Below, one piece after another: positions 2 to 40,218 of a DNA stretch of 64,000 nt (position 1 is the stretch's first letter; each line of letters starts with the position of its first letter). The position numbers and the translations under genes are program-made. The DNA lies in contig CAYMOT010000002.1 in NCBI GenBank assembly GCA_964392315.1, positions 139,637-203,636 of the forward strand, read 5' to 3'. The DNA comes from an uncultured Candidatus Saccharibacteria bacterium (GTDB lineage: Bacteria; Patescibacteriota; 4484-211; JAGQKX01). Below the pieces are notes generated by a model. That model had not been told where the DNA came from, made no database searches, and saw only the letters and a list, made by a program, of their open reading frames with translations.

Positions 2-964
2 GGAAAACGTTATTCATTGCACGAAGGTATCGTCCAAGTTCCAGGTATTGCAGTTAACAATAATGCTGACATTCCTCGCTATCGTGCGGGGAATCTCAAG
101 CTTGTGTTTGGTGTCGTGTTTTCGCTGGACAAAGAGTCAGTAGATGAGCTTAACGCGCTGCAGCAAACGGAATACGATTTTTCAAAAATGAACGGACTTA
201 AATATGGATTGAGCGGAGCCGTTGAACAACTTGCGTACTATCATGATGTTTTGCATACATATGCAGATGATTTGCAATTAGTTCGTTCTCGCGCAGACTA
301 TGAAAATCTGGCCGGCAAGATAGGAATGCTTCTGCACTTAGAAGGGATAGATTATATTTCAGATATTTCCTTACTTGAATCGTTTTATAAAATGGGAGTG
401 CGAAGTGTCGCAATGACGTGGAGAAATAAAAATATTTTTGCTTCGGGAAATAATGTGGAAGGTGGTTTGACCGATGTAGGAAGAGAATTGATAGCAAAGA
501 CACGAGAACTCGATATGGTTTTTGATCTGGCACACGCTAATCCACAGACGTTTTGGGATGCAATGGAAGCTATTGATTTTCCTTTCATGGTCTCGCATAC
601 ACTCGTCAATGCGATTAAAGAAAACTCACGCAATCTCACAGACGATCAGATAAAGGCAGTGGCTCAGCGAGGTGGGGTCATCGGTATTGCGACAATCCCT
701 GATTATATGACTGGCGATTCAATGGATGATTATGTTGACCAGTTTGACTATATCTTGAAATTGGTCGGAGAGGATCATGTTGCGTTTGGTACTGACTTTG
801 ACGGGTTGGTCGATCCGACTGATCGTTTTGTGCAGGGATTTGAAGACGCGTCAATGTATCAAAATGTGTTACAGGCTTTTGACAAACGAGGTTTCTCAGA
901 ATCCACTATTGAGAAGATCGCGTATAAAAACGCTGAGCGGTTAATCTTGTCAGCGCTTTCCTAG
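2..964 (+). CDS. Membrane dipeptidase (peptidase M19 family), 5'-partial. The frame is open to the window start.
   Basis: C-terminal motif GEDHVAFGTDFDG matches the M19 'G.DHVG.GSDFDG' signature; VSHTLVNAIKENSRNLTDDQIKA..GGVIGI matches the M19 core. The N-terminal HxD motif is absent, so the gene starts upstream of the window. Confidence 0.7.
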   Translation, partial: GKRYSLHEGIVQVPGIAVNNNADIPRYRAGNLKLVFGVVFSLDKESVDELNALQQTEYDFSKMNGLKYGLSGAVEQLAYYHDVLHTYADDLQLVRSRADYENLAGKIGMLLHLEGIDYISDISLLESFYKMGVRSVAMTWRNKNIFASGNNVEGGLTDVGRELIAKTRELDMVFDLAHANPQTFWDAMEAIDFPFMVSHTLVNAIKENSRNLTDDQIKAVAQRGGVIGIATIPDYMTGDSMDDYVDQFDYILKLVGEDHVAFGTDFDGLVDPTDRFVQGFEDASMYQNVLQAFDKRGFSESTIEKIAYKNAERLILSALS

Positions 965-969
965 GTTCT

Positions 970-1881
970 ATGATTATAGATGTGCATACTCACGTTGGAT
1001 TTAATGCGAAGCGTGCATTTAACGGTATTCACCCGTTCTGCCAATCAGCTCAGGATTTGGTGCGGAAGATGGACCAGTTTGGCATTGATACAGCAGTCAC
1101 TTTTCCCTTCGAGCCTACTCTATATGATGACCCGAAAGATTACTACACCCTTATTCCAACAGGCTTAATGGAGTATCCGTATCAATATGAAAATCGGCTT
1201 CTCATAGATCAAGTGAAAAAATTTGGCAAGGATCGTTTGATTCCGTTTGCATGCGTCGATCCACTACGAGAGGTTGATAAACAAGCAGCACAATTACGAG
1301 CATGGGCAGAAGAGGGTTTAATTCGTGGTTTTAAAATTCACACAAAAAGTATGCAAGCAGATGGTAGAACTATGATTAATTCGCCATTTGCTGCTATTGC
1401 GGAAGAGTTCAAGCTGTCAATGCTGTTTCACACCTATATGCAAGAGGTTGCGCACCCGCTGCATGTGATGGAGTTTGTAAAAAACCATTCAAGCATCCAT
1501 GTGTGTATTGCGCATGGCGGTGGGTTTATTCAAGAGTTTTATGATGAGCTGGAGAAAGTAAACCCACAGAATTTTTTCATTGACCTCTCCCCTACTACAG
1601 CACTCCTAACTTTTATCCGGAAAGAATCAAAAGAACGGGGATTTACGGTGTTAGATCTGCCGTATGAAAACCCACAAGAAGTTGTCCAGCAGATGGTAAA
1701 GAACTATGGGGAATATATTGTGTTTGGGACTGATGAGCCGTTCACCACCTACATTAATGATTTAGAAGGTGGGTCGATCATATCGGATATGGGAAAAGAG
1801 TTAGAGATATTTAGATCGCTGTCTACAGAAGATTTTGAAAAAGTAACTGACAGTAACCCGAGACGGTTTTTGCATCTTTAA
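970..1881 (+). CDS. Amidohydrolase-family metal-dependent hydrolase (TIM barrel)
   Basis: N-terminal IIDVHTHVGFN (the HxH metal-binding start typical of amidohydrolase 2); 303 aa; lies 5 nt after the dipeptidase stop, so likely in an operon with it. Confidence 0.55.
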   Translation: MIIDVHTHVGFNAKRAFNGIHPFCQSAQDLVRKMDQFGIDTAVTFPFEPTLYDDPKDYYTLIPTGLMEYPYQYENRLLIDQVKKFGKDRLIPFACVDPLREVDKQAAQLRAWAEEGLIRGFKIHTKSMQADGRTMINSPFAAIAEEFKLSMLFHTYMQEVAHPLHVMEFVKNHSSIHVCIAHGGGFIQEFYDELEKVNPQNFFIDLSPTTALLTFIRKESKERGFTVLDLPYENPQEVVQQMVKNYGEYIVFGTDEPFTTYINDLEGGSIISDMGKELEIFRSLSTEDFEKVTDSNPRRFLHL

Positions 1882-1936
1882 GTTCAGGAAGATGGAGAGA
1901 AACAGGAGCCGGTTCGGCCGGCCCCTGTTTGGGTTA

Positions 1937-3484
1937 CTACTTGCGCCAATTGGCGCGTTTTTTCATCCAGTTGACGATGCCTTCAAGCTCCGAAGGCTCT
2001 TTTTCGATGGCGATTGGATGGAGTCTCCACCCGCCGAGAACCATATCGAGTTGCGAGCTGACAAACCCTCGCAGGAAACACTGTCCAGCAGGGCTGGACA
2101 GGAGCGTAGCAGCATCTGTCTCGAGGGCTGCCTGCTTCTCTCGAAGCGTGGCGCGTTCAGGGTCTACTTCCGATCGTGCTCCTGCGACCGCTTGCTGAAC
2201 TGCTTCGCGGGTTGGGGCTTTCTTTAGTGCACTGAGCAGGCGAGGATTTAGTTGTTGCACTTCTTTCTCAGCCCACCGACGCAGTAGGTCTTCGTCTTCT
2301 GGCGCCTCCAAGTCGACTTGCTCGCGAATCGCTTTTGCCCGGTGACTTTGCTCTTCAGCGAGCTTGTTCCACGCCTCGTACATTTCAAGCAATCGGTTGA
2401 CAGTAGGAGCGGCCCAGTCTGGCGTCCAAAAGTACTTGAGATGATTAGACGGATGAAGGACGTACGTCACATCCTTCGGAAGCCCGAGTGGATCTGCAAG
2501 CAGGTCCCACAGCTGTTCGATTTCGGCACGACGCTCAGCGGATTCGTCATCATCGAGCAGGTACGTCACCATCGAGGTCCCGCTGATGTGATGGACCAAT
2601 TCGCCGCCTGACCGAGCGAGCTGTGCCATCACCGGCAGCACGACATAAGCCGTTGTGTCAAGAATTGCTCCACTCATACGAAATAAGTCGGGTTTCTCAC
2701 CCGGCTTACTAAGAATCTCCGCAATGTACTGCATGAGCTGGAGCGCGATTTTCGACAGTAGTTCTGTCGGTATCTGCGGTCCTCCGTGGTAGCGCGTCCG
2801 GATCGGGCCAACGTCTCGTAAGGGCCGGCGTACACCTTGTTCCACCCACTCGTAAAAGTGGCGAGGCAGATGTTGGGCGATCAGTGCAAGTGCCTCCGGG
2901 AGTTTATCCCATGACAGCAGAAACTCACTCGCACTTATCGGATTAGCGTGCGGGAAGGCATAGCGTAGCATACTGTAGTGATACTGCGCAGGCGTCTGCG
3001 CATGCACCGCAAGCAGCCCTGGTGGAACGATTCTTTCAAGCTGGCAAGCCACTTCCCATTGCATGCCTCCCTTTGAGGCAAGTCCGACGATGGGGTTGGG
3101 CAATACCGAACCCATCATACCGCTCCAAACACCGAGCAATTCTTCCCACTGCTGTTGCAAGCGTGCAGTGAGTAGAAAACCGGGTTGGAACGTGTAGGGT
3201 GGCTTAGCCCAGATTGCCGCAGGACCGATAACCTGCCCATCGTGGCTGACGATAAGGCTCGCGCCGTCATAGGTCAACGTGTCGACAGGGTATGCACCGT
3301 CGCCAGCGGGGGTGAACTCGTGCTGAATGAAATCCAGCCCGTGGCCACCTAACGCTGCAAGAACGGCTAGCCGCTGGCTGTTTTGTGTGCCAATATGAGA
3401 TGAGGTCCCGATTGGGACACCACCATCCAAAGCTTCTCGTAGTCGGTTGAGGGGATCATTGCCTCTTACTATTGTGAAAGCCAT
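1937..3484 (-). CDS. Hypothetical 515-aa protein, GC-rich; paralog of the 6808-8241 gene (unknown family, HHISGTSM motif)
   Basis: Longest ORF in a visibly GC-rich segment. GGAGG Shine-Dalgarno 7 nt upstream of the ATG at 3484. Ala/Arg/Leu/Pro/Trp-rich composition unlike neighbouring proteins. N-terminus MAFTIVRGNDPLNRLREAL aligns with MPINFVNGSQITLRESLEF of the 6808 gene; shared ..YAFPH.. and ..SGTSM.. blocks. Confidence 0.7.
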   Translation of the reverse strand: MAFTIVRGNDPLNRLREALDGGVPIGTSSHIGTQNSQRLAVLAALGGHGLDFIQHEFTPAGDGAYPVDTLTYDGASLIVSHDGQVIGPAAIWAKPPYTFQPGFLLTARLQQQWEELLGVWSGMMGSVLPNPIVGLASKGGMQWEVACQLERIVPPGLLAVHAQTPAQYHYSMLRYAFPHANPISASEFLLSWDKLPEALALIAQHLPRHFYEWVEQGVRRPLRDVGPIRTRYHGGPQIPTELLSKIALQLMQYIAEILSKPGEKPDLFRMSGAILDTTAYVVLPVMAQLARSGGELVHHISGTSMVTYLLDDDESAERRAEIEQLWDLLADPLGLPKDVTYVLHPSNHLKYFWTPDWAAPTVNRLLEMYEAWNKLAEEQSHRAKAIREQVDLEAPEDEDLLRRWAEKEVQQLNPRLLSALKKAPTREAVQQAVAGARSEVDPERATLREKQAALETDAATLLSSPAGQCFLRGFVSSQLDMVLGGWRLHPIAIEKEPSELEGIVNWMKKRANWRK

Positions 3485-3802
3485 CGTAACCTCCGTTTAC
3501 AGAAATTTGAAGGGGCGTGCTTCGAATACATCCGTGTCAGGGGATGACACAAGAAACAATAAACCGCGGAAGCAGCACGGTCGTGTTCCTTATCGGTTTT
3601 CGTGACGATGCACGTCGGATCCTGCGGGGAAACGCATTGATTCCTCAATCGTTGGCGTTTAATCCGATAGAGAAGAGATAGTGTTGGGTACTATCATTTG
3701 GAGAGATATGTGCAGGTGGTGGGGATTCTAAGCGAACTTAGGAGGAGGAGAGGGGAAAAAGAGAGGAAGGTACAAAGGGGAAAGGAGTTAATAAGCGTTC
3801 AT

Positions 3803-3838
3803 TTACATATTTGTACTATTTGCATATTTGCTTATTTT
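3803..3838 (+). promoter_or_regulatory. Copy of the TTGTAC-TATTTG promoter-like motif (-35 TTGTAC, 16-nt spacer, -10 TATTTT) with no plus-strand gene downstream
   Basis: ATTTGTACTATTTGCATATTTGCTTATTTT. It lies between two minus-strand genes, so it is either an antisense/sRNA promoter or a protein-binding site used in either orientation. Confidence 0.3.
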
Positions 3839-3904
3839 CTCCTCCCCCACTTATACCGATTCCTCGTAAGTTGTTAATGTTCCTGACAAAGAGGCAGTGG
3901 ATTT

Positions 3905-6016
3905 TTAGATGAGCGTTTGCTCAAGATATGCATTGCCGGTTGATCCGTTGAAGTAAAGCGTGTAGAGCAGCGGGAATCCTAAAAAGCTCAAAAAACGATT
4001 ATGTTTCCCTTGTTGTGGCCTATAAAATTCTTCGAGTACATTAACAACAGCAGTTTTTTCGTTATTGCTCTGTTGCATGATTGCATCCAGGTAAGGTGTT
4101 TCATTGATTGATTGCTGTAATCTCGAGAATGTCATTGGTGTTTCTTGAATTAACTCTTCGACAAGTGCATCGCGTTTGGCAGGCGATAATTCATGCTGAT
4201 ATACCTCAACCATCAGTTCGTGTAAATTGGTGCTATCCGAATTTATGCCTTCGAGACGATGCACTGGGTTACGCTCTAGATACATTGATTGCAGTAGCGA
4301 TGGATAGCGTTTATACAGAGTGAGCGCAATGTCAAATAAAATGCATCCACTCACAAACTCGCCATTATAATCCTCTATCAACTCAATTACCTTTTGTCCG
4401 TTATCGTAGGTTAAGTAAATATTATTTCCTTTTTCCAGAACAGAATATGCTTCTGAACCTGAATGATGTGTCAGAACATATTTCAAGATATCGTGAGAAA
4501 GTGCTTTTACTACAGGGCTTGATTCAAGTGTCAACTCGTCAAGTGGGTACCCAAGATCCTCTAACATTTTGAAATACGTGTCGTAATTGATACGGTTGAT
4601 CACATGGTATTCATCAATCATTGCAGTACGTTCGATGCGGAGCGTAGGATTTAGCTTTGTAATAACATCGATTACATAATTTGCGATGAGTACTCCTGCA
4701 CGTTGGGATAAGCCTTCGTTTCTGTCTGCATGCACGTGTGCGGTCTCGATGTTCATGGCGGTATGACTCAACGCCAATTGTTTCACTACTTCACTTTCCT
4801 CAAGTCCTGTTTGTGGAAGTTTTGTATTCCAATCGACCGGGAAATATTCTTTTATAGTACCGGTGCGCATAACAACGCTTCCGGACCGGATTTTTTGGGT
4901 GGCAAACCACTCCTGTAGGTTGTTCGCCGGTAGTATTTTGCCGGTAGATCCTTTTTTGTTAAGCATCTCTTCAAACTCATTCGTGCTTTGAAAGGAAGTA
5001 GTAATGTCCGTTGGAATCAACAATACGATATCTTTCTGCCCTATTTGTAGCTGTGTAGATTGGAAAGGCGTTGCAGAATGACCGCCCAGTGAATAGTCAT
5101 TGTGCTCAGGAGAAATGACATGGGTAAGTTTTTTGGTAAAAAAATCTTCTGCGCTTTTGGGAGAAAGTTGCACTATACTTGCATTTCCAATGAGCACGGT
5201 CTTGACATATCGTATGCCGTCTTTTACATATTCTTGTGCGCCGATGAATCCTATACCTTCTGCAATTTTGCGAAGATATGCATAATAATCGAGTAGCAAA
5301 TTAGATACCTCAAATGGGTATTGTGTCAAAAAACGCTCGTACACGTCTGCCAATTCTTTGATCTCAGGTCGGGATTCTTGTGAATCTCCATTATTCGTGA
5401 ATACGCAGGCAACGATATTATCGGTTTTGTTTTTGTATACTGCTATGTAATTAGCGTTTATTTCACGCCTGCCTTCAGTATTACTTTCAGAGTGGACAGG
5501 TAAGTATTCAGTAGTATAGCCTCTATCGACGCCGCGCTCGTTAATTGCCATAAGAAATCTGTGAAAGTCTTTGCACTGCCGATATGTCGTTTCCGCATCT
5601 AAGATGGCATCCTCATCGTTTTGTTCTTTTAGAACTGCATCCAATCCCATGATTCTGGAAAAATGGCCAAATTCATCCCGGATCTCATGCTTTTGTGCGG
5701 TTTCTTTATCAGTAAGACAAAGCTCGTTAAAGGGTGTACCAAATTCCAATAGCGCAGAGATTTCGCTTTTGATCTCTTCGGTATAGGGCTGATTTAGTTC
5801 TAGCTGTGAAAAGATAGTCTCTAACGTAACTGAAGCGCCATTTTTGGCACTTTCTGCGAGGATCATGAGTTCTGCTTTGGTTAGCTCATAAAATTGTTGT
5901 TGTTTATTAAGGGGTAAGGCATAAAAGATATCGACATCTAAGCCTTTAAAGTCGAGCACGAGCTGTGCTACCCCCTGAGGCAGGGTGTGAGTTTTGTTTG
6001 CTATTACATTTTCCAT
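3905..6016 (-). CDS. Hypothetical 703-aa protein (AT-rich; no recognisable domain)
   Basis: Long intact ORF with Lys/Asn/Ile/Glu-rich composition typical of the host. A perfect TATAAT lies ~23 nt upstream of the ATG. No SD. It sits 40 nt downstream of a minus-strand tRNA, so co-transcription is possible. Confidence 0.65.
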   Translation of the reverse strand: MENVIANKTHTLPQGVAQLVLDFKGLDVDIFYALPLNKQQQFYELTKAELMILAESAKNGASVTLETIFSQLELNQPYTEEIKSEISALLEFGTPFNELCLTDKETAQKHEIRDEFGHFSRIMGLDAVLKEQNDEDAILDAETTYRQCKDFHRFLMAINERGVDRGYTTEYLPVHSESNTEGRREINANYIAVYKNKTDNIVACVFTNNGDSQESRPEIKELADVYERFLTQYPFEVSNLLLDYYAYLRKIAEGIGFIGAQEYVKDGIRYVKTVLIGNASIVQLSPKSAEDFFTKKLTHVISPEHNDYSLGGHSATPFQSTQLQIGQKDIVLLIPTDITTSFQSTNEFEEMLNKKGSTGKILPANNLQEWFATQKIRSGSVVMRTGTIKEYFPVDWNTKLPQTGLEESEVVKQLALSHTAMNIETAHVHADRNEGLSQRAGVLIANYVIDVITKLNPTLRIERTAMIDEYHVINRINYDTYFKMLEDLGYPLDELTLESSPVVKALSHDILKYVLTHHSGSEAYSVLEKGNNIYLTYDNGQKVIELIEDYNGEFVSGCILFDIALTLYKRYPSLLQSMYLERNPVHRLEGINSDSTNLHELMVEVYQHELSPAKRDALVEELIQETPMTFSRLQQSINETPYLDAIMQQSNNEKTAVVNVLEEFYRPQQGKHNRFLSFLGFPLLYTLYFNGSTGNAYLEQTLI

Positions 6017-6056
6017 TTGCTTATTTGTTTGTTTGCATATTATAAATTTGTTGACT

Positions 6057-6133
6057 TGGCTCCCCGGGAAGGATTCGAACCTCCAACCAACTGCTAAGAA
6101 TACAGCCGCTCTGTCCTATTGAGCTACCAGGGA
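6057..6133 (-). tRNA. tRNA, anticodon read as TCT (Arg); atypical anticodon loop (AUUCUUA, U at position 37)
   Basis: Cloverleaf folded by hand. Acceptor TCCCTGG/CCGGGGA, D stem GCTC/GAGC, T arm GGAGG-TTCGAAT-CCTTC, encoded CCA. The anticodon stem GCTGT/GCAGT needs two G-U pairs. Confidence 0.6.
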
Positions 6134-6142
6134 TATAAATAA

Positions 6143-6190
6143 ACCTCCGGTGAGGGAGGTTCTGGTTCTTTTTTTATTTTTTTAATTTAA
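6143..6190. terminator. Intrinsic terminator hairpin ACCTCC-GGTGAG-GGAGGT followed by a T-run (bidirectional context)
   Basis: Perfect 6-bp stem plus TTCTGGTTCTTTTTTTATTTTTT on the plus strand; A-rich on the other side. Confidence 0.55.
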
Positions 6191-6526
6191 TTTTAGCGAG
6201 AACCCCCTATACCGTCTTTGTGATCCAGAGGACCATAAAGAAAAAAGTAATGAGACCAATAAGCATATGCTTGCTGGCCTGGGGGGTACGATAATTTGTT
6301 GTTGCTAAAATTTGGGTCATACGTCGGCTTTCTCTTATAACAGAAATTTGGCAAATCTGTCAACAGGTTTTTTGACAGAGTTAGAATACTTGTGGTATAT
6401 ACGTGTTTCATGGAAACGTCCTTATCGAGTATACAACCAAAGCGTTGGCACCAATATTATGGTTACCGGTTTACCGCGGGAGGTCTTTTCATGTTCTAAA
6501 TCCATATACAAATAAATAAACGAAGT

Positions 6527-6556
6527 ATGTTGCCTCCCGAACGGGAGGTTTTTTTG
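6527..6556 (+). terminator. Intrinsic terminator CCTCCC-GAAC-GGGAGG + TTTTTTT
   Basis: GC hairpin immediately followed by 7 T; 12 nt after the stop of the small ORF 6312-6515. Confidence 0.55.
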
Positions 6557-6637
6557 TATATGGGCACATTAACAACTAAAGTATAAAGACGGGTCACGTG
6601 TAAATTATCCGGTACAAATATTTCTTTTTGCATGTTT

Positions 6638-6681
6638 TCATTTGCTTAATTGTACTATTTGCATTATTTGCTTATTAATTT
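6638..6681 (+). promoter_or_regulatory. Sigma70-like promoter carrying the recurrent TTGTAC-TATTTG motif (-35 TTGTAC, 17-nt spacer, -10 TATTAA)
   Basis: TTGTACtatttgcattatttgctTATTAA lies ~125 nt upstream of the SD-supported start at 6808. The same motif recurs in >=10 intergenic regions. Confidence 0.5.
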
Positions 6682-6807
6682 TTGCCTGTCCCCTCTTTGT
6701 AACCCCTCTATCCTCGTTTTTATAAAGCCACTTTCCTCTTGTGGCAAAACCGCCCGGTTTTACAAATCCTCGCTTGTTTGGGAGCACACGTAAAAAGGAG
6801 TAGATCA

Positions 6808-8241
6808 ATGCCAATCAATTTTGTAAATGGTTCTCAGATTACACTGAGAGAAAGTTTGGAGTTTAACGGCCGCGGCTCTCGAACGCCGCATCCCGGTTGG
6901 GAGAATACGATGACCACGATTCTTGCCCAACTTGGGGTACCTATTGAATTGTGTTGGGAAGTGCGTGCAGATCTGAAAGGGTATCGCGTGACACATCTTG
7001 GCGGTCATCGCATATCGCAGGACGACGCGAAGTGTGGTCCGTGGGCGCAGTTTGATGTGGTGAAGTGGGCAACGGTCAGGGCCACCTTACCTGGCAGTGT
7101 TCAATCGGTCGTTTCAACCTGCTGTACGCCGTTTCAAGCACACATGGCACTAGCAAAAGCAGCGTTTCCGCACATACAAACATCGGCTGATCTGTACCTT
7201 CGTCACGGCGAATTGGTGCAAAAAGCGCTAGATGTGCTTGCTCATAGTAGGTTTCGTGAGCATTTTGCGAAATATGTAGACGGCCAAGGGTATCTGCATC
7301 CAATCTACCAGGCACATGGTAATACCGTGTATTACCAGGGAAACCAAAAGGTGCACGCCCCACACCTGGAAGGCGGGTATATGAGACTCCTTGAGTTTGT
7401 GAAGGCGTCACAGAAGCACGGCGCCCAGGTTGCCTATCCCGCTTGGGGAGTGCTTCCTGATGCGCGGATTCTATGTCTACTGGATATGGTGGTGTATGCA
7501 CTGAGTGGGAATATTGACCACGTGTATGCGTGGTCGGGCACGTCGATGATGCAATACATCCTCAAAGAAGCTGATTCACAGCGGTGGCGAGAGATTGTGT
7601 CAGGGATGTATGACTTGGTGCGGCAACGTGCTTTGCCGGAGTTACCACGAGTATTAGATTTCACGCTAATACCTACGTTGGGTTTGGGTGATCTGGCTGT
7701 GACAGATGCAAGCATGGCGCAAGCAGTTAATACCCAACTGTGTCAGTTAAATGTTGCGGGAGTACGTGAGGAGCGGACAGACAAAGTTGGTTTGCAGCAA
7801 ATGGCGCGTGATGATGCGTATGCATTCTTGGCGCACATTGCTTTGTCCCTGGAGCCAAACGCGTGCACTGAGATTGCTCAGATGCTTGATGACGGCAATT
7901 GGCAAGGTGCCGGCGGCAAAGCTTCGGCATTGATATCTCTGCGCAGCAAAAAGCAGCACGTATGTGATCGGCATGTGGTTGAGGCTGAGTTAGGAGAACT
8001 GCTGCGAGATAACACCGGAAGATTTGTCCTTGCCAATCAACCGGCAGTAGATGCGCTGGCGTATGCAAACGGTACGCGATTGCACCTGTTGGTGGGTGTT
8101 TTGGATATTCCGGCAGGTAAGTTTGATTCGTATCGGGCGCGATTGGCAAACATCGCGTCGAGAGGGCAACGTAAAAATACTTCTCAAGAAGATGGTCCTC
8201 TCTTGCCCTATTTCAATAGAGCTGGGTGGATGCTAGAGTAA
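6808..8241 (+). CDS. Hypothetical 477-aa protein, GC-rich; paralog of the 1937-3484 gene
   Basis: AAAGGAG SD 8 nt upstream of the ATG at 6808 (the ORF track start at 6739 is probably too early). N-terminus and the internal AFPH / AWSGTSM blocks align with the 515-aa protein. GC-rich. Confidence 0.7.
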   Translation: MPINFVNGSQITLRESLEFNGRGSRTPHPGWENTMTTILAQLGVPIELCWEVRADLKGYRVTHLGGHRISQDDAKCGPWAQFDVVKWATVRATLPGSVQSVVSTCCTPFQAHMALAKAAFPHIQTSADLYLRHGELVQKALDVLAHSRFREHFAKYVDGQGYLHPIYQAHGNTVYYQGNQKVHAPHLEGGYMRLLEFVKASQKHGAQVAYPAWGVLPDARILCLLDMVVYALSGNIDHVYAWSGTSMMQYILKEADSQRWREIVSGMYDLVRQRALPELPRVLDFTLIPTLGLGDLAVTDASMAQAVNTQLCQLNVAGVREERTDKVGLQQMARDDAYAFLAHIALSLEPNACTEIAQMLDDGNWQGAGGKASALISLRSKKQHVCDRHVVEAELGELLRDNTGRFVLANQPAVDALAYANGTRLHLLVGVLDIPAGKFDSYRARLANIASRGQRKNTSQEDGPLLPYFNRAGWMLE

Positions 8242-8250
8242 ATAGGAGGT

Positions 8251-8293
8251 ATAAAAAAAAGCCGGCCGCCCACAAGGGGCGTCCGGCTTTTTG
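8251..8293. terminator. Bidirectional intrinsic terminator (A-run, AGCCGGCCGCCC-ACAA-GGGGCGTCCGGCT hairpin, T-run)
   Basis: Sits between convergent genes (6808-8241 + and 8365-8754 -). GC-rich stem flanked by A8 and T5. Confidence 0.6.
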
Positions 8294-8364
8294 CGATTAG
8301 AGCGACATCATGTACGCAAGTCGCTCCATCTGGTATTCCAATTCAGCCGCACACTCACGACATG

Positions 8365-8754
8365 TCAGACCTCCTCGTTGAAAACATAACCGAGCCATTG
8401 CAGCACGGGGCGGACATACTTGCCGCCGCAGTCGAGCCAGATAACCGAACAGCTCGCGACATCGAAAATGCCAAGAGCCACTTCCTGCTTCTGGACGACT
8501 GTTCCTTCCTGGTAGCCCATTTGCTTCAGGGCCTCGATCACGGTCGGGGTGACCGACACGCGATTAATCAAGATGGCGCCATATCCGCGTCGCTGGTATT
8601 CTTCGGTACCTTGGAAGTACCTTACCCAGTGTTCGATAGCGATTTTGGCGCTTTCCACATCCGCGCCGAACGAATATTGCCGTCCTTCTACGAAGGTGAA
8701 GCCGGACGTTAACCTCAGCCAGTACTCGCCGAGCGTCATGGTGGGGATTGTCAT
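8365..8754 (-). CDS. Hypothetical 129-aa protein, possibly a GNAT-fold acetyltransferase
   Basis: GGAGGTG SD 5 nt upstream of the ATG at 8754. The ATGA overlap with the upstream 181-aa gene means translational coupling. QRRGYGAIL resembles GNAT motif A (Q/R-x-x-G-x-G/A). Confidence 0.45.
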   Translation of the reverse strand: MTIPTMTLGEYWLRLTSGFTFVEGRQYSFGADVESAKIAIEHWVRYFQGTEEYQRRGYGAILINRVSVTPTVIEALKQMGYQEGTVVQKQEVALGIFDVASCSVIWLDCGGKYVRPVLQWLGYVFNEEV

Positions 8755-9296
8755 TTCCCACCTCCGACGACCGCACCGCAGCGGATGCAATAATCACGCA
8801 ATACGGCTTTATCGTTGACGAGATCTCCGAGTCGACGCGTACCGTGGTTGTGTTCACACTTCGCGTATGTCCAATAGGGTTGATCGAGAATGTTCCAACC
8901 CACGCGGGCGTACATGAAGGTCTTATAGTGAAGTACGCAAGGCGCCCACGGTATCGTTCCTTCCGGGCATACCGTAAAGGTTGCATAGTGCTCGTGGGAT
9001 ACCCGAGTCACTCTTGATATCCCTTCACTGTGCGCACGAAGTACAGCTGACGTCCACCCTGTGGGGACGTAGGTGGGGATGCGCGAAGACATGCCGAACC
9101 AATATACGCTCTTATCACCCTCAAAAATAGCAACAAGAGTTGTTGCATCGACCGAAAGCGCAATGTAATACGACATGACCTGCTCTTTTTCGATGCCGAG
9201 AATTTCTGCAACCTCGGACAGTTTGTTCCAACCCCATTTACCGAACTTGAAGGGTTGGATGTTCGGAAACCGATAAACCGCTGGTGCTACTATCAT
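8751..9296 (-). CDS. Hypothetical 181-aa protein with a C-terminal Cys/His cluster (CEHNH..CIRCG)
   Basis: AAGGAAGG SD upstream of the ATG at 9296 (ORF track start 9347 is probably too early). GC-rich. Its stop overlaps the start of the 129-aa gene. Confidence 0.45.
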   Translation of the reverse strand: MIVAPAVYRFPNIQPFKFGKWGWNKLSEVAEILGIEKEQVMSYYIALSVDATTLVAIFEGDKSVYWFGMSSRIPTYVPTGWTSAVLRAHSEGISRVTRVSHEHYATFTVCPEGTIPWAPCVLHYKTFMYARVGWNILDQPYWTYAKCEHNHGTRRLGDLVNDKAVLRDYCIRCGAVVGGGK

Positions 9297-9767
9297 ACTT
9301 TCCTTCCTTTTCAAGGATGCCTTAGGAAAGATTCGTTTAACGCCCATCGGCGTTCTGATCTGAATTGTGCATACCCTAGATGCAACGGGCCAAATCAGCC
9401 CGTGGTGTCTCCGTGAGACGAGTGAAGCTGAACATTGGGTTACTTCATCTAAGAAGTTCTAAACTGGGTGTTTAGAGCAATGCAGCAAGTTATATGGCTT
9501 GTTTTCTTTTGGTGGGAACCTAAAAAAACAAAGGTGTGAGGGGTATTGTGACATATATGCAGGGAGGCATATGTTTGTCTGGGAAGCGTCAGGTAGGGAG
9601 CCTGATTTTGCAAACGTGTGCAGTGCTTCTAATTGGTCGTAAAGACCGTAAAGCGGGGAGTCTTGGGAGAGGAGAGGAAGATAGGAAAGTACAAATAAGC
9701 AGATAAGCAAATACTATAGGACCAGCTTGGTTAAGTAAGGATCTGATTGATAAGGGTATTGAAACAT

Positions 9768-9796
9768 GAAAAAAGCCACCTTTTCCAAGGGTGGCT
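9768..9796 (-). terminator. Intrinsic terminator for the 458-aa gene (GCCACC-CTTGGAAAA-GGTGGC + T-run on the minus strand)
   Basis: Hairpin 40 nt after the stop at 9836, followed on the minus strand by TTTTTT. Confidence 0.6.
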
Positions 9797-9835
9797 CTGC
9801 GAATCGCCCGGCTGGGCCGAGCGACTCATAAATGG

Positions 9836-11212
9836 TTACTTCTTGCTTGTCAATGCGTCAAGCCAATTGGCCAAACGCTCCATCCATCGTGGAATGGGGA
9901 ATCTCATTCCCACCAACTCATCGAATTGAGAGGCAGTAACGGCTTTGGCCAACGCACGACGGATCGCGTTTCGGAAACGCAGTGCACGGATGTGAGATCT
10001 GCTCCAAGGTTGTATCTCAAATCGGGGTCTTTCACCGGGATGCCAGATTACTCCGACAGCAACACCGTCGTCTTTGTTTCCAAAGAGATCGAAGCCGTAC
10101 TGTGTACCGGCGTATTCCCCCATCCAGCGCTCGAAGCGCTCTCCTGTTCTGTTCTCCTCGTTAGGCAGGTTCTCCAGGATCGCCTCCACGATGTGCCGGC
10201 AAAGGTGTAGCGTTTCCACTGGACCATAGGGTTCAATTCCCTTCCAATCTCGTCGTGAGAATGAACGGAACACCTGAACAGTCCTTTTTGGATACTTACC
10301 CTGATTATTGGAGATTACTGTATTGCAAAATCCAACATATTCGAGAGCAGGGTTTTCCAAAAAAAGTCTGTCCACTAGCCAATACAGAATTCTCGGCAGT
10401 TCTTGTGTACCTCCAGATGGCGCGAGGAAGACGTGGGTAACAGGAAGATGCTCCATGGAATCTTGAATCGACGTGGGAGTGAAATGGTTCTTGAAGAAGA
10501 AAGTCTCAAGTGTACCCGTAATCCCTAATTCAGTCGATAAACCTGTATCCAGGTCAACACCATGATACCGGTCATCATCATCAAGGAGCTGCACGATCAA
10601 CCCAAATGGACCCGTTACCGGTCCATAATGTTGCCAATAACTGCCATTGGCTGAAGTCACCTTCCAGAAGACACGATTGATTGGCTCGACGCGTGTCTCC
10701 AGGTACGGGAATAGTTGTCGAACCAATTCACCTTGATCATGTTCGTAGGTAACCGGGATCATCCCTTTAGGCAGCCTAGGACGAGCGTATCGGTCTCCAA
10801 CCTTTAGGGCTTGGATACTTCCACCCTTTGGATCTCGGGCCATCATCCAATCGCCACCCCAGTCATAGAGTTCTTCGAGTCGACCTGTTTCTAACAGGTG
10901 GTTGTAGATATCAAAGAACTCTTGTGAAGTCATTGGCCAGCCCGTGGATGCGACTTGGACATTCCAGAAGTGTCCGATGAACGGACTTGTCCGAACGAGC
11001 TCATCGATTTGGGTGGGTATTGCTTTTAAGGCGTCCAATTTGGACATTGGAGCTGATCTCAGAAACCTCCCATCATAGGCTGCAAACGCCTCAAATTGCT
11101 CTTTCCACCAAATGTGAGAAATACCCACCGATATCCACGGTATCCTCAGATTGGTGGGCTTACCCGGTCTTACTTCGATGTACGGCTTACGTGAAACCAT
11201 CCCACTCGTCAT
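9836..11212 (-). CDS. Hypothetical 458-aa protein (GC-rich, Trp-rich, LLDDDDRYHGVDLDTGL acidic block)
   Basis: Long intact ORF in the GC-rich block. ATGA start/stop overlap with the upstream 98-aa gene. Dedicated terminator downstream. No domain recognised. Confidence 0.6.
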   Translation of the reverse strand: MTSGMVSRKPYIEVRPGKPTNLRIPWISVGISHIWWKEQFEAFAAYDGRFLRSAPMSKLDALKAIPTQIDELVRTSPFIGHFWNVQVASTGWPMTSQEFFDIYNHLLETGRLEELYDWGGDWMMARDPKGGSIQALKVGDRYARPRLPKGMIPVTYEHDQGELVRQLFPYLETRVEPINRVFWKVTSANGSYWQHYGPVTGPFGLIVQLLDDDDRYHGVDLDTGLSTELGITGTLETFFFKNHFTPTSIQDSMEHLPVTHVFLAPSGGTQELPRILYWLVDRLFLENPALEYVGFCNTVISNNQGKYPKRTVQVFRSFSRRDWKGIEPYGPVETLHLCRHIVEAILENLPNEENRTGERFERWMGEYAGTQYGFDLFGNKDDGVAVGVIWHPGERPRFEIQPWSRSHIRALRFRNAIRRALAKAVTASQFDELVGMRFPIPRWMERLANWLDALTSKK

Positions 11213-11505
11213 GACGCCACCTCCGCATGTCCGTTGCCAAGACGCAGTTGTTCGCGGACGATTTCCAGAACGTCATCGCGGACTGATGCCGTATAGGCAT
11301 CAACCCGGAAATAGAGCCCTGAGATATCGATCGTAACAAAGTTGCCATCAAGGCCTATGCGTACCGGAACAGAGGGCACTTTTAGGGGAACCGTGATCTC
11401 AGCATCCAGATCAAGCAGAGCGAGAACTTCCTCGCGACCGAACAAAACGGCCCACTTCGAATGGCCGTTTATTCCAACGGAAATAAAACGTTTGTTTGTA
11501 TTCAC
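11209..11505 (-). CDS. Hypothetical 98-aa protein (GTG start), first gene of a coupled pair with the 458-aa gene
   Basis: AAGGAG SD 6 nt upstream of the GTG at 11505. Its stop overlaps the ATG of the 458-aa gene. Confidence 0.45.
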   Translation of the reverse strand: MNTNKRFISVGINGHSKWAVLFGREEVLALLDLDAEITVPLKVPSVPVRIGLDGNFVTIDISGLYFRVDAYTASVRDDVLEIVREQLRLGNGHAEVAS

Positions 11506-12365
11506 AACATTCTCCTTACATCATCTTCTAAAGGAAAACACGTTGGCGTTCCCAGCTTCCCGGGCTGAGGGTTTTTGAACACAGTTTGATGCAACTATGC
11601 GTCGCATCGAGGACAGGCTAAAAGCGGATGCATGTAAAACCAAAATCACGCATCACACTATCCTCTCGTCTTAACCCAGTCGTCAGTAAAACGACCTGGA
11701 TTTTGAAGACTTCTCGTGTTGTCGTCACGAGCATTAAATGGACCGTTTCCATCGGGTGATGGAAATCCTACTAGGAGATTCGGCCATTCCTCACGGCCAC
11801 GGACTCGCCACGTATGACGAGCCGTTCGCAGTTGATCCAAAACTGCTTTTGGAGCTGACTGACACATCAGCTTTTTGTATGAGGGGAATTGCAGGCGCAT
11901 GCACGGTAGCCCATGCATGGCAAATATGCGGGGACAGAACTTGAATGGTGAATTCAAGGTGTTTTCTTCAATACCAGTCGGGAGACAGGTAAGGAAAAAA
12001 CGAGGGTTTTTGGTAGGAGTTTTGTCAACCTAACTGACAGGGTGGTCAGTATAACGGTTGTATTGAATCATTTGATTGGGAGTCAAATGTGTCTTTGATA
12101 GACGTATTCAATTAGAGGAATTGAAAAAGGGTGGGGGTCGAAAGAGAGAGGAAAGGTATACTTTGTGTTTTTGCCAAGAATCAACTTGATCCATGGGTTA
12201 TTAGTTAATTAACAAAGTGCACGTTTCCTCCATCTTAAGTACCTTGATCCTTTCTAGTCCTACTTTCCCTATTCCCTCATACATAATATATATAGATTGT
12301 TAATGAACGGAAAATATGGTGCGAATTATACGCGTAAATTACATATATGTAAATACTATGGGACC

Positions 12366-12930
12366 AATATGTCATTTAAAAAATGTTATAGAAAGATACT
12401 GTAGTGTATGCAGCAAAAAGCCCTCCGCATCTCCCCCATAGTTTGGAGTTGCGAAGGGCAGCTATTAGGCCAATATAGTACATGGCCTTTTTAAGTCCCG
12501 AAGGACTCGAACTATTTTCTTGGCTGGCTCTACACCGTAGCCCCAAGAGCGCCGTTCGAAGGCTGAGGAGTCCGCTACCCTTACACATGTAAGGACGGCT
12601 GAAGATCTGTTACCAGACCTTTTGTTTTGGTACGCACAAGTCGTACCCTCCGCTACTCACCTGCCCTCTTTCGATCTCGCAGGTTGCCGTATGACTTGAG
12701 TAGCCGCATAGGCTGTATTGGTGAGTATTATGATAATTCTTTTGGTTCAGGAAGTGCCGAGGGGCAGGCGATTCCAGGCACCTACCCCTCAAACATCCGT
12801 CCTCCGGTGATTCACGCCTCGCTTCGTGAACATTTATGCCTTCATGTACAACACATCTAGAGTAATAAGCTAATAATCAAATAATCCAATAAACAAATAT
12901 ACAAATAAATTGAAAGGCCTATAAACGAAT
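12366..12930 (+). ncRNA. Candidate large structured non-coding RNA of unknown class
   Basis: ORF-free 1.3 kb gap. GC-rich island (12400-12860) inside AT-rich DNA. Nested perfect helices (GCTACTC..CCTGC..GCAGG..GAGTAGC) and a pseudoknot-like GTGCC/GAGGGG..GGCAC..CCCCTC arrangement. An upstream AAATACTATGGGACC promoter-like motif and a downstream CCTCCC hairpin terminator (12932-12968) bracket it. tRNA-Leu follows. Confidence 0.3.
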
Positions 12931-12931
12931 G

Positions 12932-12968
12932 AACCTCCCTTTTGTGGGAGGTTGTGTATTTGTTTCTT
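12932..12968 (+). terminator. Intrinsic terminator CCTCCC-TTTTGT-GGGAGG + T-rich tail
   Basis: Perfect 6-bp GC stem followed by TTGTGTATTTGTTTCTTT. Same hairpin family as 6143 and 6527. Confidence 0.5.
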
Positions 12969-13236
12969 TGATTTATAAAACAAACCTCCCTATGAATAAT
13001 TGCCAATAATGACAAAAAGCATAGTATCCTGGTGCTTGGTCCAGGATGTGGAGATCTGAGAGTTGGTTGCGAAACAGCTGTACATACTAATGTGGACTAT
13101 AACGTTATTTAATATGTCCGTCAATGGGAGGTTATAATATATAAATACACCAATAATCTAATAGTCGAGTAGCCTAAATAGTAAAAATAATAATAATCAT
13201 AATCATATAAATAATAAAGATAGGCACCTATCAATC

Positions 13237-13280
13237 GATTTGCTTATTTGTACTATTTGTAGTATTTGTTTATTACTCAG
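13237..13280 (+). promoter_or_regulatory. Sigma70-like promoter for tRNA-Leu (-35 TTGTAC, 17-nt spacer, -10 TATTAC, 5-6 nt to the tRNA 5' end)
   Basis: TTGCTTATTTGTACtatttgtagtatttgttTATTACtcagG, where the final G is tRNA position 1. Confidence 0.55.
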
Positions 13281-13365
13281 GCCGGTGTGGTGAAATTGGC
13301 AGACACGCTTGGTTTAGGACCAAGTGCCGAAAGGCTTGGGGGTTCAAGTCCCTCCACCGGCACCA
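13281..13365 (+). tRNA. tRNA-Leu (anticodon TAG), class II with a long variable arm
   Basis: Hand-folded. Acceptor GCCGGTG/CACCGGC, 3-bp D stem, anticodon arm CTTGG-TTTAGGA-CCAAG, 13-nt variable arm, T arm GGGGG-TTCAAGT-CCCTC, A73, encoded CCA. Confidence 0.85.
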
Positions 13366-13432
13366 CAAAAAATAATTTCAAATAATCAAATATACAAATA
13401 AGCAAATAGAAAGAGGGTAATTTTCGAATACG

Positions 13433-16809: not shown

Positions 16810-16877
16810 GGCCGTGTATTATAGGCAAAAACCACTTATTTGTCAATACTATAGGTATATATTCGGGGTTGAGATTT

Positions 16878-17516
16878 TTAGAGCTGGGATTTAATTTGCT
16901 CCATTATTGAAGCAACATGGGTACGCCATCCACCATGTGTTTGAGCACTTTGCGGAGTATATAGCTGTTCTATTTGTGCAGGGGTCACGCGGCCATTCTT
17001 GATGTAATTTTCGCAGAGTCCCTGCCCTACTCGTTCAATTGCGTGATCCCAGTTTTCGAATACTGCACCGCTTGATTTACCCGAGTAAATTGCCCACCCA
17101 AATGCATTGAACGATCCGCGGGGAATTATTCGTCCATATCCTGACTCTTTACCCGCAATTGCGGGTAAAAGAGCCCAGTCCATTGGACATGCGTCAGCAA
17201 CGCGGATAAACGTCTCTGCATGACCAGCCATGGGTGAATTCTGTGCGATAAGAAATTTTTCTAATACATACGGGCGTTTGTCATTATCACCTTCGGTAAA
17301 TCCAAAAATGCTGCTTACTTTTGGAATAGCTGCAAAATAACCAGATTTAGTAGTGCTGGACGCTTCTGTCTGATTAGCCCCGCCAGAATGTCGCTGCCAA
17401 ATTCCATACACTAATACACCAGAAACAAGTATTGCTCCAAAAAACCAAACACTCAGCGCATAGAGACCAAGAGGCATATGAATTAACCGGAAAGTTTTGA
17501 AGGGAGTGCGTATCAT
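16878..17516 (-). CDS. Glucosaminidase-domain (FlgJ-C / N-acetylglucosaminidase-like) peptidoglycan hydrolase
   Basis: N-terminal TM. LLPAIAGKESGYG ... NAFGW block typical of the mannosyl-glycoprotein endo-beta-N-acetylglucosaminidase domain. Confidence 0.5.
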   Translation of the reverse strand: MIRTPFKTFRLIHMPLGLYALSVWFFGAILVSGVLVYGIWQRHSGGANQTEASSTTKSGYFAAIPKVSSIFGFTEGDNDKRPYVLEKFLIAQNSPMAGHAETFIRVADACPMDWALLPAIAGKESGYGRIIPRGSFNAFGWAIYSGKSSGAVFENWDHAIERVGQGLCENYIKNGRVTPAQIEQLYTPQSAQTHGGWRTHVASIMEQIKSQL

Positions 17517-17519
17517 AGA

Positions 17520-19418: not shown

Positions 19419-19518
19419 GCATGGCGTGAGTAACTAAATAAGCAAATAAACAAATAACCCAATTAAATAGTATTTGTACTATTTGTCCGCCAGCTGGCGG
19501 ATTTGCTATTATCTTATT

Positions 19519-20426: not shown

Positions 20427-20508
20427 TAGTTAAGTTCAAATTTGCTCGATTTTTTTACAAGCTCAAGCCATTTGTTAATTGGTTTATTTGTACTATTTGT
20501 TTATTAAA

Positions 20509-40141: not shown

Positions 40142-40218
40142 GCCCCAGTAGCTCAGTAGGATAGAGCAACTCCCTTCTAAGGAGTAGGTCAGAGGTTCGA
40201 CTCCTCTCTGGGGTACCA
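40142..40218 (+). tRNA. tRNA-Arg (anticodon TCT), canonical
   Basis: Anticodon arm ACTCC-CTTCTAA-GGAGT; D stem GCTC/GAGC; T arm AGAGG-TTCGACT-CCTCT; A73; CCA encoded. Confidence 0.85.

Follow-up and report, generated by a model that had tools for sequence, protein, structure and literature searches.

A conserved, probably tRNA-linked module of ligase-like genes and a hypervariable tail in GC-rich DNA of a Candidatus Saccharibacteria genome

We analysed a stretch of 64,000 nucleotides from an uncultured Candidatus Saccharibacteria bacterium (GenBank assembly GCA_964392315.1, contig CAYMOT010000002.1, positions 139,637 to 203,636; hereafter the window), in which the original prediction had marked positions 1885-11960 as a compositionally foreign, GC-rich block of unassignable genes, interrupted by an AT-rich gene and a tRNA gene. 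Our analysis leads to a different description, in two parts that we hold jointly and with moderate confidence. Positions 17-8241 are best read as an ancient, vertically inherited gene module of the Candidate Phyla Radiation (CPR, or Patescibacteria; Microgenomates-like) and not as a foreign island, while positions from about 7500 to 12000 are, judging from alignments of related strains, a hypervariable tail that starts within the 3′ third of the gene for a 477-aa protein. We read it as a conserved ligase module that is probably tRNA-linked; its structural description is given with high confidence. The features to which we refer are the following.

17-964, plus strand: M19 membrane dipeptidase (Pfam PF01244, E 7.7e-73); the gene is cut by the window edge and encodes 353 aa in the full contig.
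970-1881, plus strand: Amidohydro_2 hydrolase (Pfam PF04909, E 3.2e-16).
1937-3484, minus strand: 515-aa ligase-like protein (“515 type”), modelled with a Rossmann fold like that of class I aminoacyl-tRNA synthetases (aaRS) and BshC.
3905-6016, minus strand: 703-aa protein, the partner encoded 5′ of the ligase gene; background composition, GC 41%.
6057-6133, minus strand: the module tRNA, called tRNA-Arg(UCU) by ARAGORN; anticodon loop AUUCUUA, with U37.
6808-8241, plus strand: 477-aa paralogue (“477 type”) with the N-terminal motif T-P-H-P-G-W-E-N; GC 51%.
8300-8365, minus strand: 3′ remnant of a 131/132-aa gene (tblastn, 59-62% identity over the last 21-22 residues).
8365-8754, minus strand: 129-aa fast-evolving protein, second gene of the 181/129 pair; GC content at third codon positions (GC3) 0.70.
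8751-9296, minus strand: 181-aa fast-evolving protein, first gene of the 181/129 pair.
9836-11212, minus strand: 458-aa strain-specific orphan, probably coding, from the length of its open reading frame (ORF) and its pattern of GC by codon position (GC1 > GC3 > GC2).
11209-11505, minus strand: 98-aa strain-specific orphan whose stop overlaps the start of the 458-aa gene.
11658-11957, minus strand: 99-aa ORF where the GC-rich DNA ends, doubtful as a coding sequence.
40142-40218: canonical tRNA-Arg(UCU), loop CUUCUAA, 70.9 bits.

The gene coordinates, the start/stop overlaps within both gene pairs and the minus-strand tRNA at 6057-6133 are as noted earlier. For the DNA at 11658-11957 the public gene call prefers a 68-aa ORF on the opposite strand, and no homologue of the 99-aa ORF was found among the related loci compared. 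Genes for an arginase and an aminotransferase are located just beyond the window edge. Scans of all block proteins (the 515-, 477- and 703-aa proteins and those of the tail) with Pfam, PHROGs, NCBIfam and PADLOC gave no family match, which upholds the earlier remark that none could be assigned to a family, and only tRNAs were matched within the block by Rfam at gathering and permissive thresholds.

We compared the window to related loci (labelled L), with further gene contexts drawn from a protein index and from a metagenome scan with a profile of the 703-aa family. Among these, L001 is an independent assembly of the same genome (identical DNA, 100%), L091-L093 represent a near-identical strain, and L002-L007 represent a sister species with the same gene order at about 73% nucleotide identity. 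L008, L097 and L098 form one lineage, of which L008 is a Candidatus Woesebacteria genome. The order dipeptidase, amidohydrolase, 515-aa gene, 703-aa gene, tRNA and 477-aa gene is kept in three genomes of the genus from independent samples. Across the related loci, a 703-like gene is directly followed by a gene of the 515/477 family in all of the 13 loci that have downstream DNA, which cover about 10 lineages, the window genus included. An M19 dipeptidase gene is located 3′ of the ligase gene in nine loci (L008/97/98, L096, L099, L103, L090, L105/106), and in the four loci with an Amidohydro_2 gene (L008, L096, L097 and L098; 49% identity) this gene adjoins the dipeptidase gene. The best genome match of the amidohydrolase is to the Woesebacteria genome L008 (49% identity), where the order is a 703-like gene (29% identity over 694 residues), an orthologue of the 477-aa gene (43%) and then the genes for the M19 dipeptidase and the amidohydrolase. 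An arginase gene is found near the module in L103, as in the window genus. The other genomes carry one ligase subtype, whereas the window genus carries both, one on either side of the tRNA-703 pair. The module is also present in GC-richer genomes, namely L099 (51% GC) and the P0004 contig (54.5% GC), which encodes a protein 54% identical to the 515-aa protein. A scan of a genome collection with the 515 family gave no match, and literature searches found no description of this module.

These comparisons bear directly on two of the earlier claims. The AT-rich composition noted for the 703-aa gene and the tRNA is correct, as both resemble the background (GC3 0.393, segment z-score -0.5), but the linkage of the 703-aa gene, the tRNA and the 515/477 family in distant CPR genomes shows that the two are not an insert. 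Likewise, the absence from relatives that a foreign island would lead one to expect is seen only for the 458/98 pair; the 515-aa gene, 703-aa gene, tRNA and 477-aa gene are syntenic in both L091 and L002.

The proposed paralogy of the 515-aa and 477-aa proteins was confirmed (BLASTP E 8e-10, 24% identity over 187 aa). Near its N-terminus the 515 type carries the signature R-[ST]-[AS]-H-[IV]-G-x-x-N, and the 477 type carries [ST]-P-H-P-G-[WG]-x-N. The 515-aa protein matches four clusters among 5.8 billion protein clusters, and the family profile recovered 176 relatives among 1.84 billion representatives, nine of them below 1e-30. Between the window and the sister species, the ratio of nonsynonymous to synonymous substitution rates (dN/dS) is about 0.04 for the 515-aa gene, as compared to 0.05 for the dipeptidase and 0.04 for the amidohydrolase. 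In a confident structure model of the 515-aa protein, the residues H30-I-G32-T-Q-N35 of its N-terminal motif S-S-H-I-G-T-Q-N follow the strand 25-30, where the HIGH signature of class I aaRS would be expected, and the second histidine of that signature is missing. The closer relatives (alignment A1) all share the H, G and N of the motif, H30 and G32 hardly vary over 66 aligned sequences, and H-[IV]-G-x-x-N is found after the first strand in every 515-type relative. A second motif, S-G-T-S-M (residues 301-305), follows the strand 296-301, with G302 and Y308 invariant and M305 nearly so, and the C-terminal region is helical, with long helices at 356-462. The model displays both the Rossmann-fold catalytic domain of class I aaRS and the Rossmann core plus coiled-coil region of the BshC fold. 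The closest structure is BshC (PDB 4wbd), at a sequence identity of 6%, and Foldseek comparisons with PDB and viral structures gave weak matches (E of at least 0.05) in which ArgRS, cyclodipeptide synthase and TyrRS recurred.

Pfam BshC was matched neither by the 515-aa protein (E <= 0.1) nor by any of the 66 aligned relatives (E <= 0.05); no aaRS family was matched by the 515-aa protein or the 66 relatives in Pfam, NCBIfam or PDB sequences; and a PDB sequence search with the 515/477-family profile returned nothing. None of the 66 relatives matched any Pfam family, with the exception of one that carries a C-terminally fused ThrRS-type anticodon-binding domain; the other extra domains of longer relatives were uninformative. 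On the evidence of the structure model, we conclude that the 515/477 proteins belong to the nucleotidyl-transferase/class I synthetase fold class as a new family, outside every named one, and we infer that they would act as ATP-dependent amino-acid ligases.

Distant relatives of the ligase were seen in two further loci, L107 (4753-7422, 473 aa) and L089 (254-3284, 592 aa with the ThrRS-type anticodon-binding domain). Both are preceded by a different partner of 414/419 aa (59% identical to each other), to which the 703 family is unrelated, and the pair in L107 adjoins pheS/pheT.

The 703-like gene is, as far as gene order in the sampled loci can tell, an obligate 5′ partner of the ligase gene. 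The invariant motifs of the 703 family include E-x-A-H-x-H-A-D-R, M-[IV]-D-[DE]-Y-H-V-[IV]-N-R, E-S-S-P and F-Y-[RK]-P-Q-Q. A PDB sequence search with the family profile gave no match, and a comparison of the 703-family and ligase-family profiles revealed no relation.

The third component, the module tRNA, ends 40 nt before the start codon of the 703-aa gene. Its identity as a tRNA is supported by both ARAGORN and Rfam, and both the D-arm and the T-arm are conserved. In five lineages, including the window genus, a tRNA that shares this T-arm (GGAGGTTCGAATCCTTCC, one position different in L096) precedes the 703-like gene by 16-90 nt, and the T-arm was found nowhere else among the 104 loci compared. 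The five distinct module tRNAs share one cloverleaf, with compensatory changes in 7 of 21 pairs (RNAalifold), and the tRNA is 100% identical between the window and L002, although its flanks are only 73% identical. The anticodon loops are far less uniform: the loop is AUUCUUA in the window genus (anticodon UCU), CUUUUUA in L101 (UUU) and UGCUUUA in L105 (CUU), while L008/L097/L098 have a 6-nt loop, AUCUUA, and L096 also has a 6-nt loop; in L008 and L096 no anticodon can be called. The loop in the window, A-U-U-C-U-U-A, has A32 and U37. In all of the fetched DNA, U37 is present in five of five module tRNAs and in none of the 19 ordinary tRNAs, all of which have a purine at this position. The module tRNAs score 37.8-54.5 bits with Rfam, as compared to 55.8-71 bits for the ordinary tRNAs; the module tRNA of the window scores 54.5 bits and the canonical tRNA-Arg(UCU) of the same window, to which it is about 70% identical, 70.9 bits. 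The module tRNAs thus lack what canonical decoding would lead one to expect, namely a 7-nt loop with a purine at 37 and a pyrimidine at 32, and an anticodon conserved among orthologues. That the tRNA body is conserved while its anticodon loop drifts and is defective suggests, on this comparative evidence, that the RNA is used, but for something other than decoding. The tRNA was seen only with the 477-type ligase, in a small sample of four lineages with the tRNA versus three without (L101 is cut before the ligase gene). An argument about EF-Tu from the A51-U63 pair was discarded as non-discriminating, since the canonical tRNA-Arg of the genome has the same pair.

Other small elements were observed near the module tRNA. 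In L008 (about 1540-1630, also in L097 and L098), a partial second tRNA 3′ end, GGCGAATCCTTCCAGGCCAAC, is located between the module tRNA and the 703-like start; it is a duplication of the kind that integration at a tRNA gene can leave. Hairpins with the pattern ACCTCC(C)-loop-(G)GGAGGT and a T-run behind them are present at 6142-6161, 6532-6549 and 12932-12953 in the window, and in the same form at about 5960-5983 in L090, about 5790-5815 in L099 and about 1440-1468 in L097. They precede the module tRNA or, where there is no tRNA, directly precede the 703-like start codon, and may be ordinary terminators or hairpins that hide a ribosome-binding site.

The module resembles several known systems without coinciding with any of them. 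The 515-aa protein has a fold like that of BshC, the putative cysteine ligase of bacillithiol synthesis, but the gene context differs: a tRNA, a dipeptidase and an amidohydrolase are found here, and no bshA- or bshB-like gene was recovered among the annotated neighbours in the window or the related loci. With regard to class I aaRS (class I LysRS, PDB 1irx; ArgRS; GluRS), the 515 type lacks the second histidine of HIGH and has S-G-T-S-M rather than KMSKS, the 477 type has P-H-P-G, and there is no match to these families at the sequence level. The adjacent tRNA has no conserved anticodon, which argues against the 515/477 proteins being one of the 20 standard synthetases. Cyclodipeptide synthases are proteins of about 230 aa that use ordinary cellular tRNAs, and the fold score of the 515-aa protein with them is far below those with BshC or LysRS-I. 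The order of a tRNA gene followed by enzyme genes resembles pylT-pylS, but tRNA-Pyl has a suppressor anticodon and the module tRNA does not. Aminoacyl-tRNAs are used outside translation by Fem transferases, MprF and VlmA; in the module, no product or tailoring enzymes are evident. In Staphylococcus aureus, tRNA-Gly isoacceptors are kept out of translation (PMC4052509), and the likeness to these cell-wall tRNAs consists in a tRNA with features that disfavour decoding, here in physical linkage with its presumed user enzymes. The S. aureus tRNA-Gly, however, has a normal anticodon and has lost G18G19, whereas the module tRNA has kept G18G19 and has an aberrant anticodon loop.

A mechanism can be outlined on these grounds. 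The ligase (515/477) would activate an amino acid with ATP, as class I synthetases do and as BshC presumably requires, and would hand it on, either to the module's own non-decoding tRNA or to an amine acceptor. Its 703-aa partner would join in the transfer or consume the product, and the dipeptidase and the amidohydrolase would provide or recycle amino-acid or peptide substrates. The amino acid may be a basic one, to judge from the Arg/Lys-type anticodons that were called, the arginase in the cluster, and LysRS-I and ArgRS as neighbours in the predicted fold. Indirect hints at the charging of a tRNA come from the module tRNA next to the genes and from the single relative with a fused ThrRS-type anticodon-binding domain. 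That the whole constitutes a tRNA-dependent CPR pathway, in which a non-decoding tRNA is charged or used by a new class-I-synthetase-like family and the 703-aa protein builds a peptide or amide product, is a tentative proposal that we consider less probable than its being wrong.

We then asked what the atypical composition of the block implies. GC content was profiled in 300-nt windows, with 1-kb windows at 12001-64000 as background, and GC3 was computed for each gene. The whole window has a GC content of 42.5%, and the background a mean of 41.4% (sd 2.4, maximum 46.8%). At the left edge the GC content steps from 0.43 (1651-1950) to 0.57 (1951-2250), so that the abrupt switch described after the amidohydrolase stop is found in its expected place. 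It stays at 0.55-0.57 up to about 3450, returns to 0.38-0.45 at 3751-6750 (the 703-aa gene and the tRNA), and rises for a second time to 0.49-0.56 from 6751 to about 9150 and 0.45-0.55 from there to about 12000, with dips at 9301-9750 (0.43-0.46) and 10201-10500 (0.45). The GC z-scores are +3.0 to +5.2 for the GC-rich segments, as compared to -0.5 for the segment of the 703-aa gene and the tRNA. The contrast is therefore real, but the estimate by eye, mid-50s versus upper-30s per cent, was too wide, the computed values being about 50-56% versus about 41%.

At the gene level, GC content and GC3 are 55.8% and 0.572 in the 515-aa gene, 51.2% and 0.496 in the 477-aa gene, 55.4% and 0.70 in the 129-aa gene, 51.3% and 0.544 in the 181-aa gene, 49.5% and 0.503 in the 458-aa gene, and 51.2% and 0.505 in the 98-aa gene, versus 41.0% and 0.393 in the 703-aa gene. 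The 47 ORFs beyond the block have a GC3 of 0.369 ± 0.040 (maximum 0.485), which yields z-scores of +3.1 to +8.2 for the GC-rich genes. The GC content at four-fold sites is 0.534 in these genes versus 0.372, with both G-ending and C-ending codons more frequent, and the encoded proteins are enriched in W (2.3-fold), R (1.7-fold), P (1.5-fold), H (1.4-fold) and A (1.2-fold), in agreement with the earlier description of Ala/Arg/Pro/Trp/His-rich proteins. GC content and codon usage are thus not uniform, as they would be if there were no anomaly, but depart clearly from the background in both the sliding GC and the GC3. GC-rich genes were also observed to the left of the window in the same genome (L001): small ORFs without Pfam matches at 16124-17739 and 20287-21158 (GC3 0.56-0.64) and a CitMHS transporter gene at 18095-19558 (GC3 0.60), with counterparts of these in the sister species L002. 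Raised GC content is therefore scattered in this genome and not limited to the block.

The strongly atypical GC content, GC3 and amino-acid usage would all be expected if the whole of 1885-11960 were one island from a high-GC donor, with cargo, that was later split by an AT-rich insertion. The pooled GC-rich DNA also correlates less well with the background tetranucleotide signature (r = 0.28) than do size-matched pieces (0.51 ± 0.08), most of the proteins have few or no homologues, and tRNA genes are located close by. We nevertheless consider a single island very unlikely. In distant CPR genomes the 515/477 genes are linked to the 703-aa gene and the tRNA in a conserved module of native composition, with the GC3 of the 515/477 family equal to that of the host (0.216 versus 0.24-0.27 in L090, 0.389 versus 0.31-0.40 in L008 and 0.126 versus 0.14-0.16 in L089), so the family is not intrinsically GC-rich at silent sites. 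The segment of the 515-aa gene is host-like in its tetranucleotides (r = 0.40, as compared to 0.32 ± 0.09 for size-matched host pieces), and the GC-rich segments are mutually unlike (pairwise r 0.00-0.22), which indicates no single donor. Neither an integrase or transposase nor any defence, toxin, phage or mobility family was found among the block proteins in Pfam, PHROGs and PADLOC, and the suggested defence or toxin cargo found no support in these searches. A repeat search recovered only short AT-rich intergenic motifs, with no duplicated tRNA end in the window and no direct repeat that would define or flank an element.

The history of the 515-aa gene also disagrees with a recent import. Its GC content is 54-56% and its GC3 0.54-0.57 in the window, L091 and L002 alike, although silent sites between the window and L002 are saturated (proportion of synonymous differences, pS, 0.745, as compared to 0.64-0.68 for its neighbours). 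Polarised changes are near balance, with 44 GC-to-AT versus 35 AT-to-GC, a count that the saturated outgroup makes noisy, and the decay toward host composition expected of an island was not seen in this gene. The steady GC content in three genomes, the near-balanced changes and the host-like tetranucleotides taken together do not fit a recent foreign origin. With the same moderate confidence as for the module as a whole, of which it is part, we regard the high GC content of the ligase genes as an old, maintained feature of the genus rather than as un-ameliorated recent foreign DNA. From the proposed gain from a high-GC host, what stands is the atypical composition and the strain specificity of the 458/98 pair; what does not is its extension to the 515-aa, 477-aa and 703-aa genes and the tRNA, which are conserved in the CPR, and the single donor.

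The comparison with L091 revealed a mosaic. The two strains do not differ (100% identity) in the dipeptidase gene or at 4200-6900, where the 703-aa gene and the tRNA are located. Identity is 77-94% in the last part of the amidohydrolase gene and in most of the 515-aa gene, and about 91% in the first part of the 477-aa gene. From 7500 on, identity is 49-81% per 300-nt window and mostly below 75%, with 81% at 9301-9600. Synonymous divergence (dS) follows the same pattern: 0-0.04 for the M19 dipeptidase and the 703-aa gene/tRNA region (0.04 for the 703-aa gene), 0.26 for both the amidohydrolase and the 515-aa gene, 0.46 for the N-terminal part of the 477-aa gene and about 2.0 for its C-terminal part. 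The first approximately 300 residues of the 477-aa protein are accordingly nearly identical in the two strains, whereas residues 297-477 are only 53% identical and represent a divergent allele.

Downstream of this gene, the genes up to those for two proteins of 212 and 632 aa mostly differ among the three genomes compared, and the tail is flanked by two tRNA genes. The 129-aa protein is 68% identical to a 128-aa protein in L002 but only 29% identical to a 133-aa protein in L091 (pN/pS, the ratio of the proportions of nonsynonymous and synonymous differences, 0.37); the 181-aa protein is 43% identical to a 177-aa protein in L091 (pN/pS 0.55) and has no counterpart in L002. Searched singly against PDB sequences, neither gave a match. 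The 131/132-aa gene is intact in L091 and L002, while only the remnant at 8300-8365 is left in the window. The 458/98 pair is absent from both L091 and L002, the 98-aa protein is without a homologue in any related locus compared, and L091 has five other genes at the same site, four of them GC-rich. The 458-aa protein matched only itself among the 5.8 billion protein clusters, and had no match in PDB or in a scan of viral contigs. In the tail, the small 129- and 181-aa genes and the 98/458 orphans would thus be gained, lost and swapped as divergent alleles. A polymorphic toxin, with a fixed N-terminus, a variable C-terminus and small genes downstream, was considered for this arrangement and rejected, as the small genes converge and are not co-directional, and neither a toxin nor an immunity family was matched.

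It is conceivable that only this tail, at about 8250-11960, is recently foreign and was recombined into a variable locus beside the module, perhaps with a function in interaction or conflict. We take this to be a serious contender that falls somewhat short of an even chance. It accounts for the absence of the 458/98 pair from the sister species and from a strain that is about 100% identical over M19 and 703/tRNA, for the other GC-rich orphan genes that both relatives hold at the same place, for the singleton status of the 458-aa protein, for a tetranucleotide correlation with the host of 0.07, and for the allele classes of the 129-aa protein, which cross species and do not track strain relatedness. 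On the other side, no donor can be named, homologues having been found nowhere, viral contigs included, there are no mobility genes, and short segments make for weak tetranucleotide statistics. The GC-rich, orphan-like small genes elsewhere in the genome (L001 16124-17739 and 20287-21158) also suggest that the genes of the tail may be native and fast-evolving rather than imports. The tail resembles genomic islands in its strain variability, its atypical orphan genes and its site between two tRNA genes, but has no integrase, defining direct repeats or identifiable donor. Since the variation sets in within a conserved gene and involves alleles that, though homologous, have diverged deeply, it is more like recombinational allele exchange than insertion of an element.

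The segments that recombine between strains are also those in which the GC-rich genes lie, and the raised GC content could accordingly stem from a recombination hot spot, by GC-biased gene conversion or by repeated import of alleles from GC-richer carriers of the module. The strain-divergent segments (dS 0.26-0.46 versus 0-0.04) are the GC-rich genes and the 3′ part of the amidohydrolase; G- and C-ending codons both rise, unlike what translational selection would produce; GC-to-AT and AT-to-GC changes are near balance; and the module is known from GC-richer genomes (L099, 51%; the P0004 contig, 54.5%). We still find this explanation doubtful. The GC3 shift of +13 to +33 points is far above what is attributed to gene conversion in bacteria, the 3′ part of the amidohydrolase recombines too and yet is not GC-rich, and the comparison covers three genomes of the genus. 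A selective preference for C-ending codons was rejected as an explanation of the high GC3, as G-ending codons rise at least as much.

The abrupt flips in composition at gene boundaries might also be ascribed to a chimeric contig, and the overlapping ORFs on both strands at 8362-9347, as expected in GC-rich DNA, to ORFs that are not genes but non-coding or structured RNA. Both ideas have a negligible probability. The same junctions occur in independent assemblies of this genome, in the near-identical strain and in the sister species, from several samples, which rules out the mis-assembly that had been raised as a caveat. The 515- and 477-aa genes have dN/dS values of 0.04-0.2 and the small genes the pN/pS values of 0.37-0.55 given above, the 515-aa protein has a confident structure model, and Rfam matched tRNAs only.

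Several observations weigh against an ancient ligase module with a maintained, raised GC content. The 477 type has a degenerate P-H-P-G instead of H-I-G, and the 515-aa protein has no KMSKS-like lysine motif, S-G-T-S-M being found at only the approximate place of KMSKS. No fold is recognisable for the 703-aa protein, of which a model from a 3-sequence alignment reached a mean confidence score (pLDDT) of 49. In L090, L099 and L100, whose ligases are all of the H-I-G type, the 703-like gene has no tRNA in front of it, so the tRNA is not universal to the module. The lineage placement comes from best matches to a Woesebacteria genome at 49-55% identity. The segments of the 477-aa gene, the small genes and the 458-aa gene correlate with the host tetranucleotides at only r = 0.07 (size-matched pieces 0.32 ± 0.09), and these parts may thus be of foreign origin. 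The raised GC content fits a local equilibrium linked to recombination as well as repeated allele import from GC-richer relatives. Finally, BshC offers little mechanistic guidance for the 515/477 proteins, as its own reaction has yet to be reconstituted and may depend on a further protein (PMC5790435).

Additional features were observed around the tail and elsewhere in the window. Relative to the module, the tRNA-Leu(UAG) region (13281-13365) has the opposite orientation in the sister species (L002 1381-1465). Between the block and tRNA-Leu, a GC-rich (about 50%) non-coding patch is located at 12400-12840 on the minus strand, with a minimum free energy of -171.7 kcal/mol, as compared to -138 ± 6.4 kcal/mol for shuffled sequences (z -5.2; plus strand z -2.6). 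The patch ends in a hairpin and U-run at about 12418-12460, has no ORF longer than 77 aa, yields no Rfam match at a threshold as loose as E <= 10 and lacks conservation in L091 and L002 past the terminator; either a structured RNA peculiar to the strain or a decayed gene is conceivable. An AT-rich motif with an 8-nt period, (AATAANCA)n or its complement ATTTGCTTATTTGTACTATTTG, is repeated between genes of the window at 3801-3838, 6640-6677, 9686-9713, 12856-12915, 13136-13179, 13238-13275 and 13373-13416; one copy precedes tRNA-Leu by 5 nt, and another precedes the start codon of the 477-aa gene by 130 nt. Copies are also found in L091 and L002, and the motif may be a promoter or another regulatory element. 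A minus-strand gene at 56582-62614 encodes what is probably a large surface protein, 2010 aa long, in which fibronectin-III, laminin-G/concanavalin-like and Ig-like domains were identified; the GC skew at 60-62 kb, within this gene region, is -0.23 to -0.30.

For genome scanning, the block carries a caution: a sharp GC step together with orphan proteins is not by itself proof of recent foreign DNA, and the GC-rich state here has outlasted saturating divergence. Much of bacterial diversity belongs to the CPR, whose conserved genes for the most part have no known function. In the present case, two “hypothetical proteins” and a supposedly ordinary tRNA have become one defined, testable unit: a family absent from Pfam with a predicted class I synthetase/BshC fold, always paired with a second protein, often preceded by an aberrant tRNA whose anticodon loop seems ill-suited to decoding, and followed by enzymes that cleave peptides. 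The unit may also help to understand BshC, as it hints at a partner protein or a carrier of the activated amino acid. If the tRNA is a substrate, this would be a new extra-ribosomal use of tRNA, in organisms that rely on scavenged amino acids, and if the proposed pathway is true, it would be a fourth dedicated tRNA-enzyme system beside those of selenocysteine (Sec), pyrrolysine (Pyl) and the cell-wall tRNAs.

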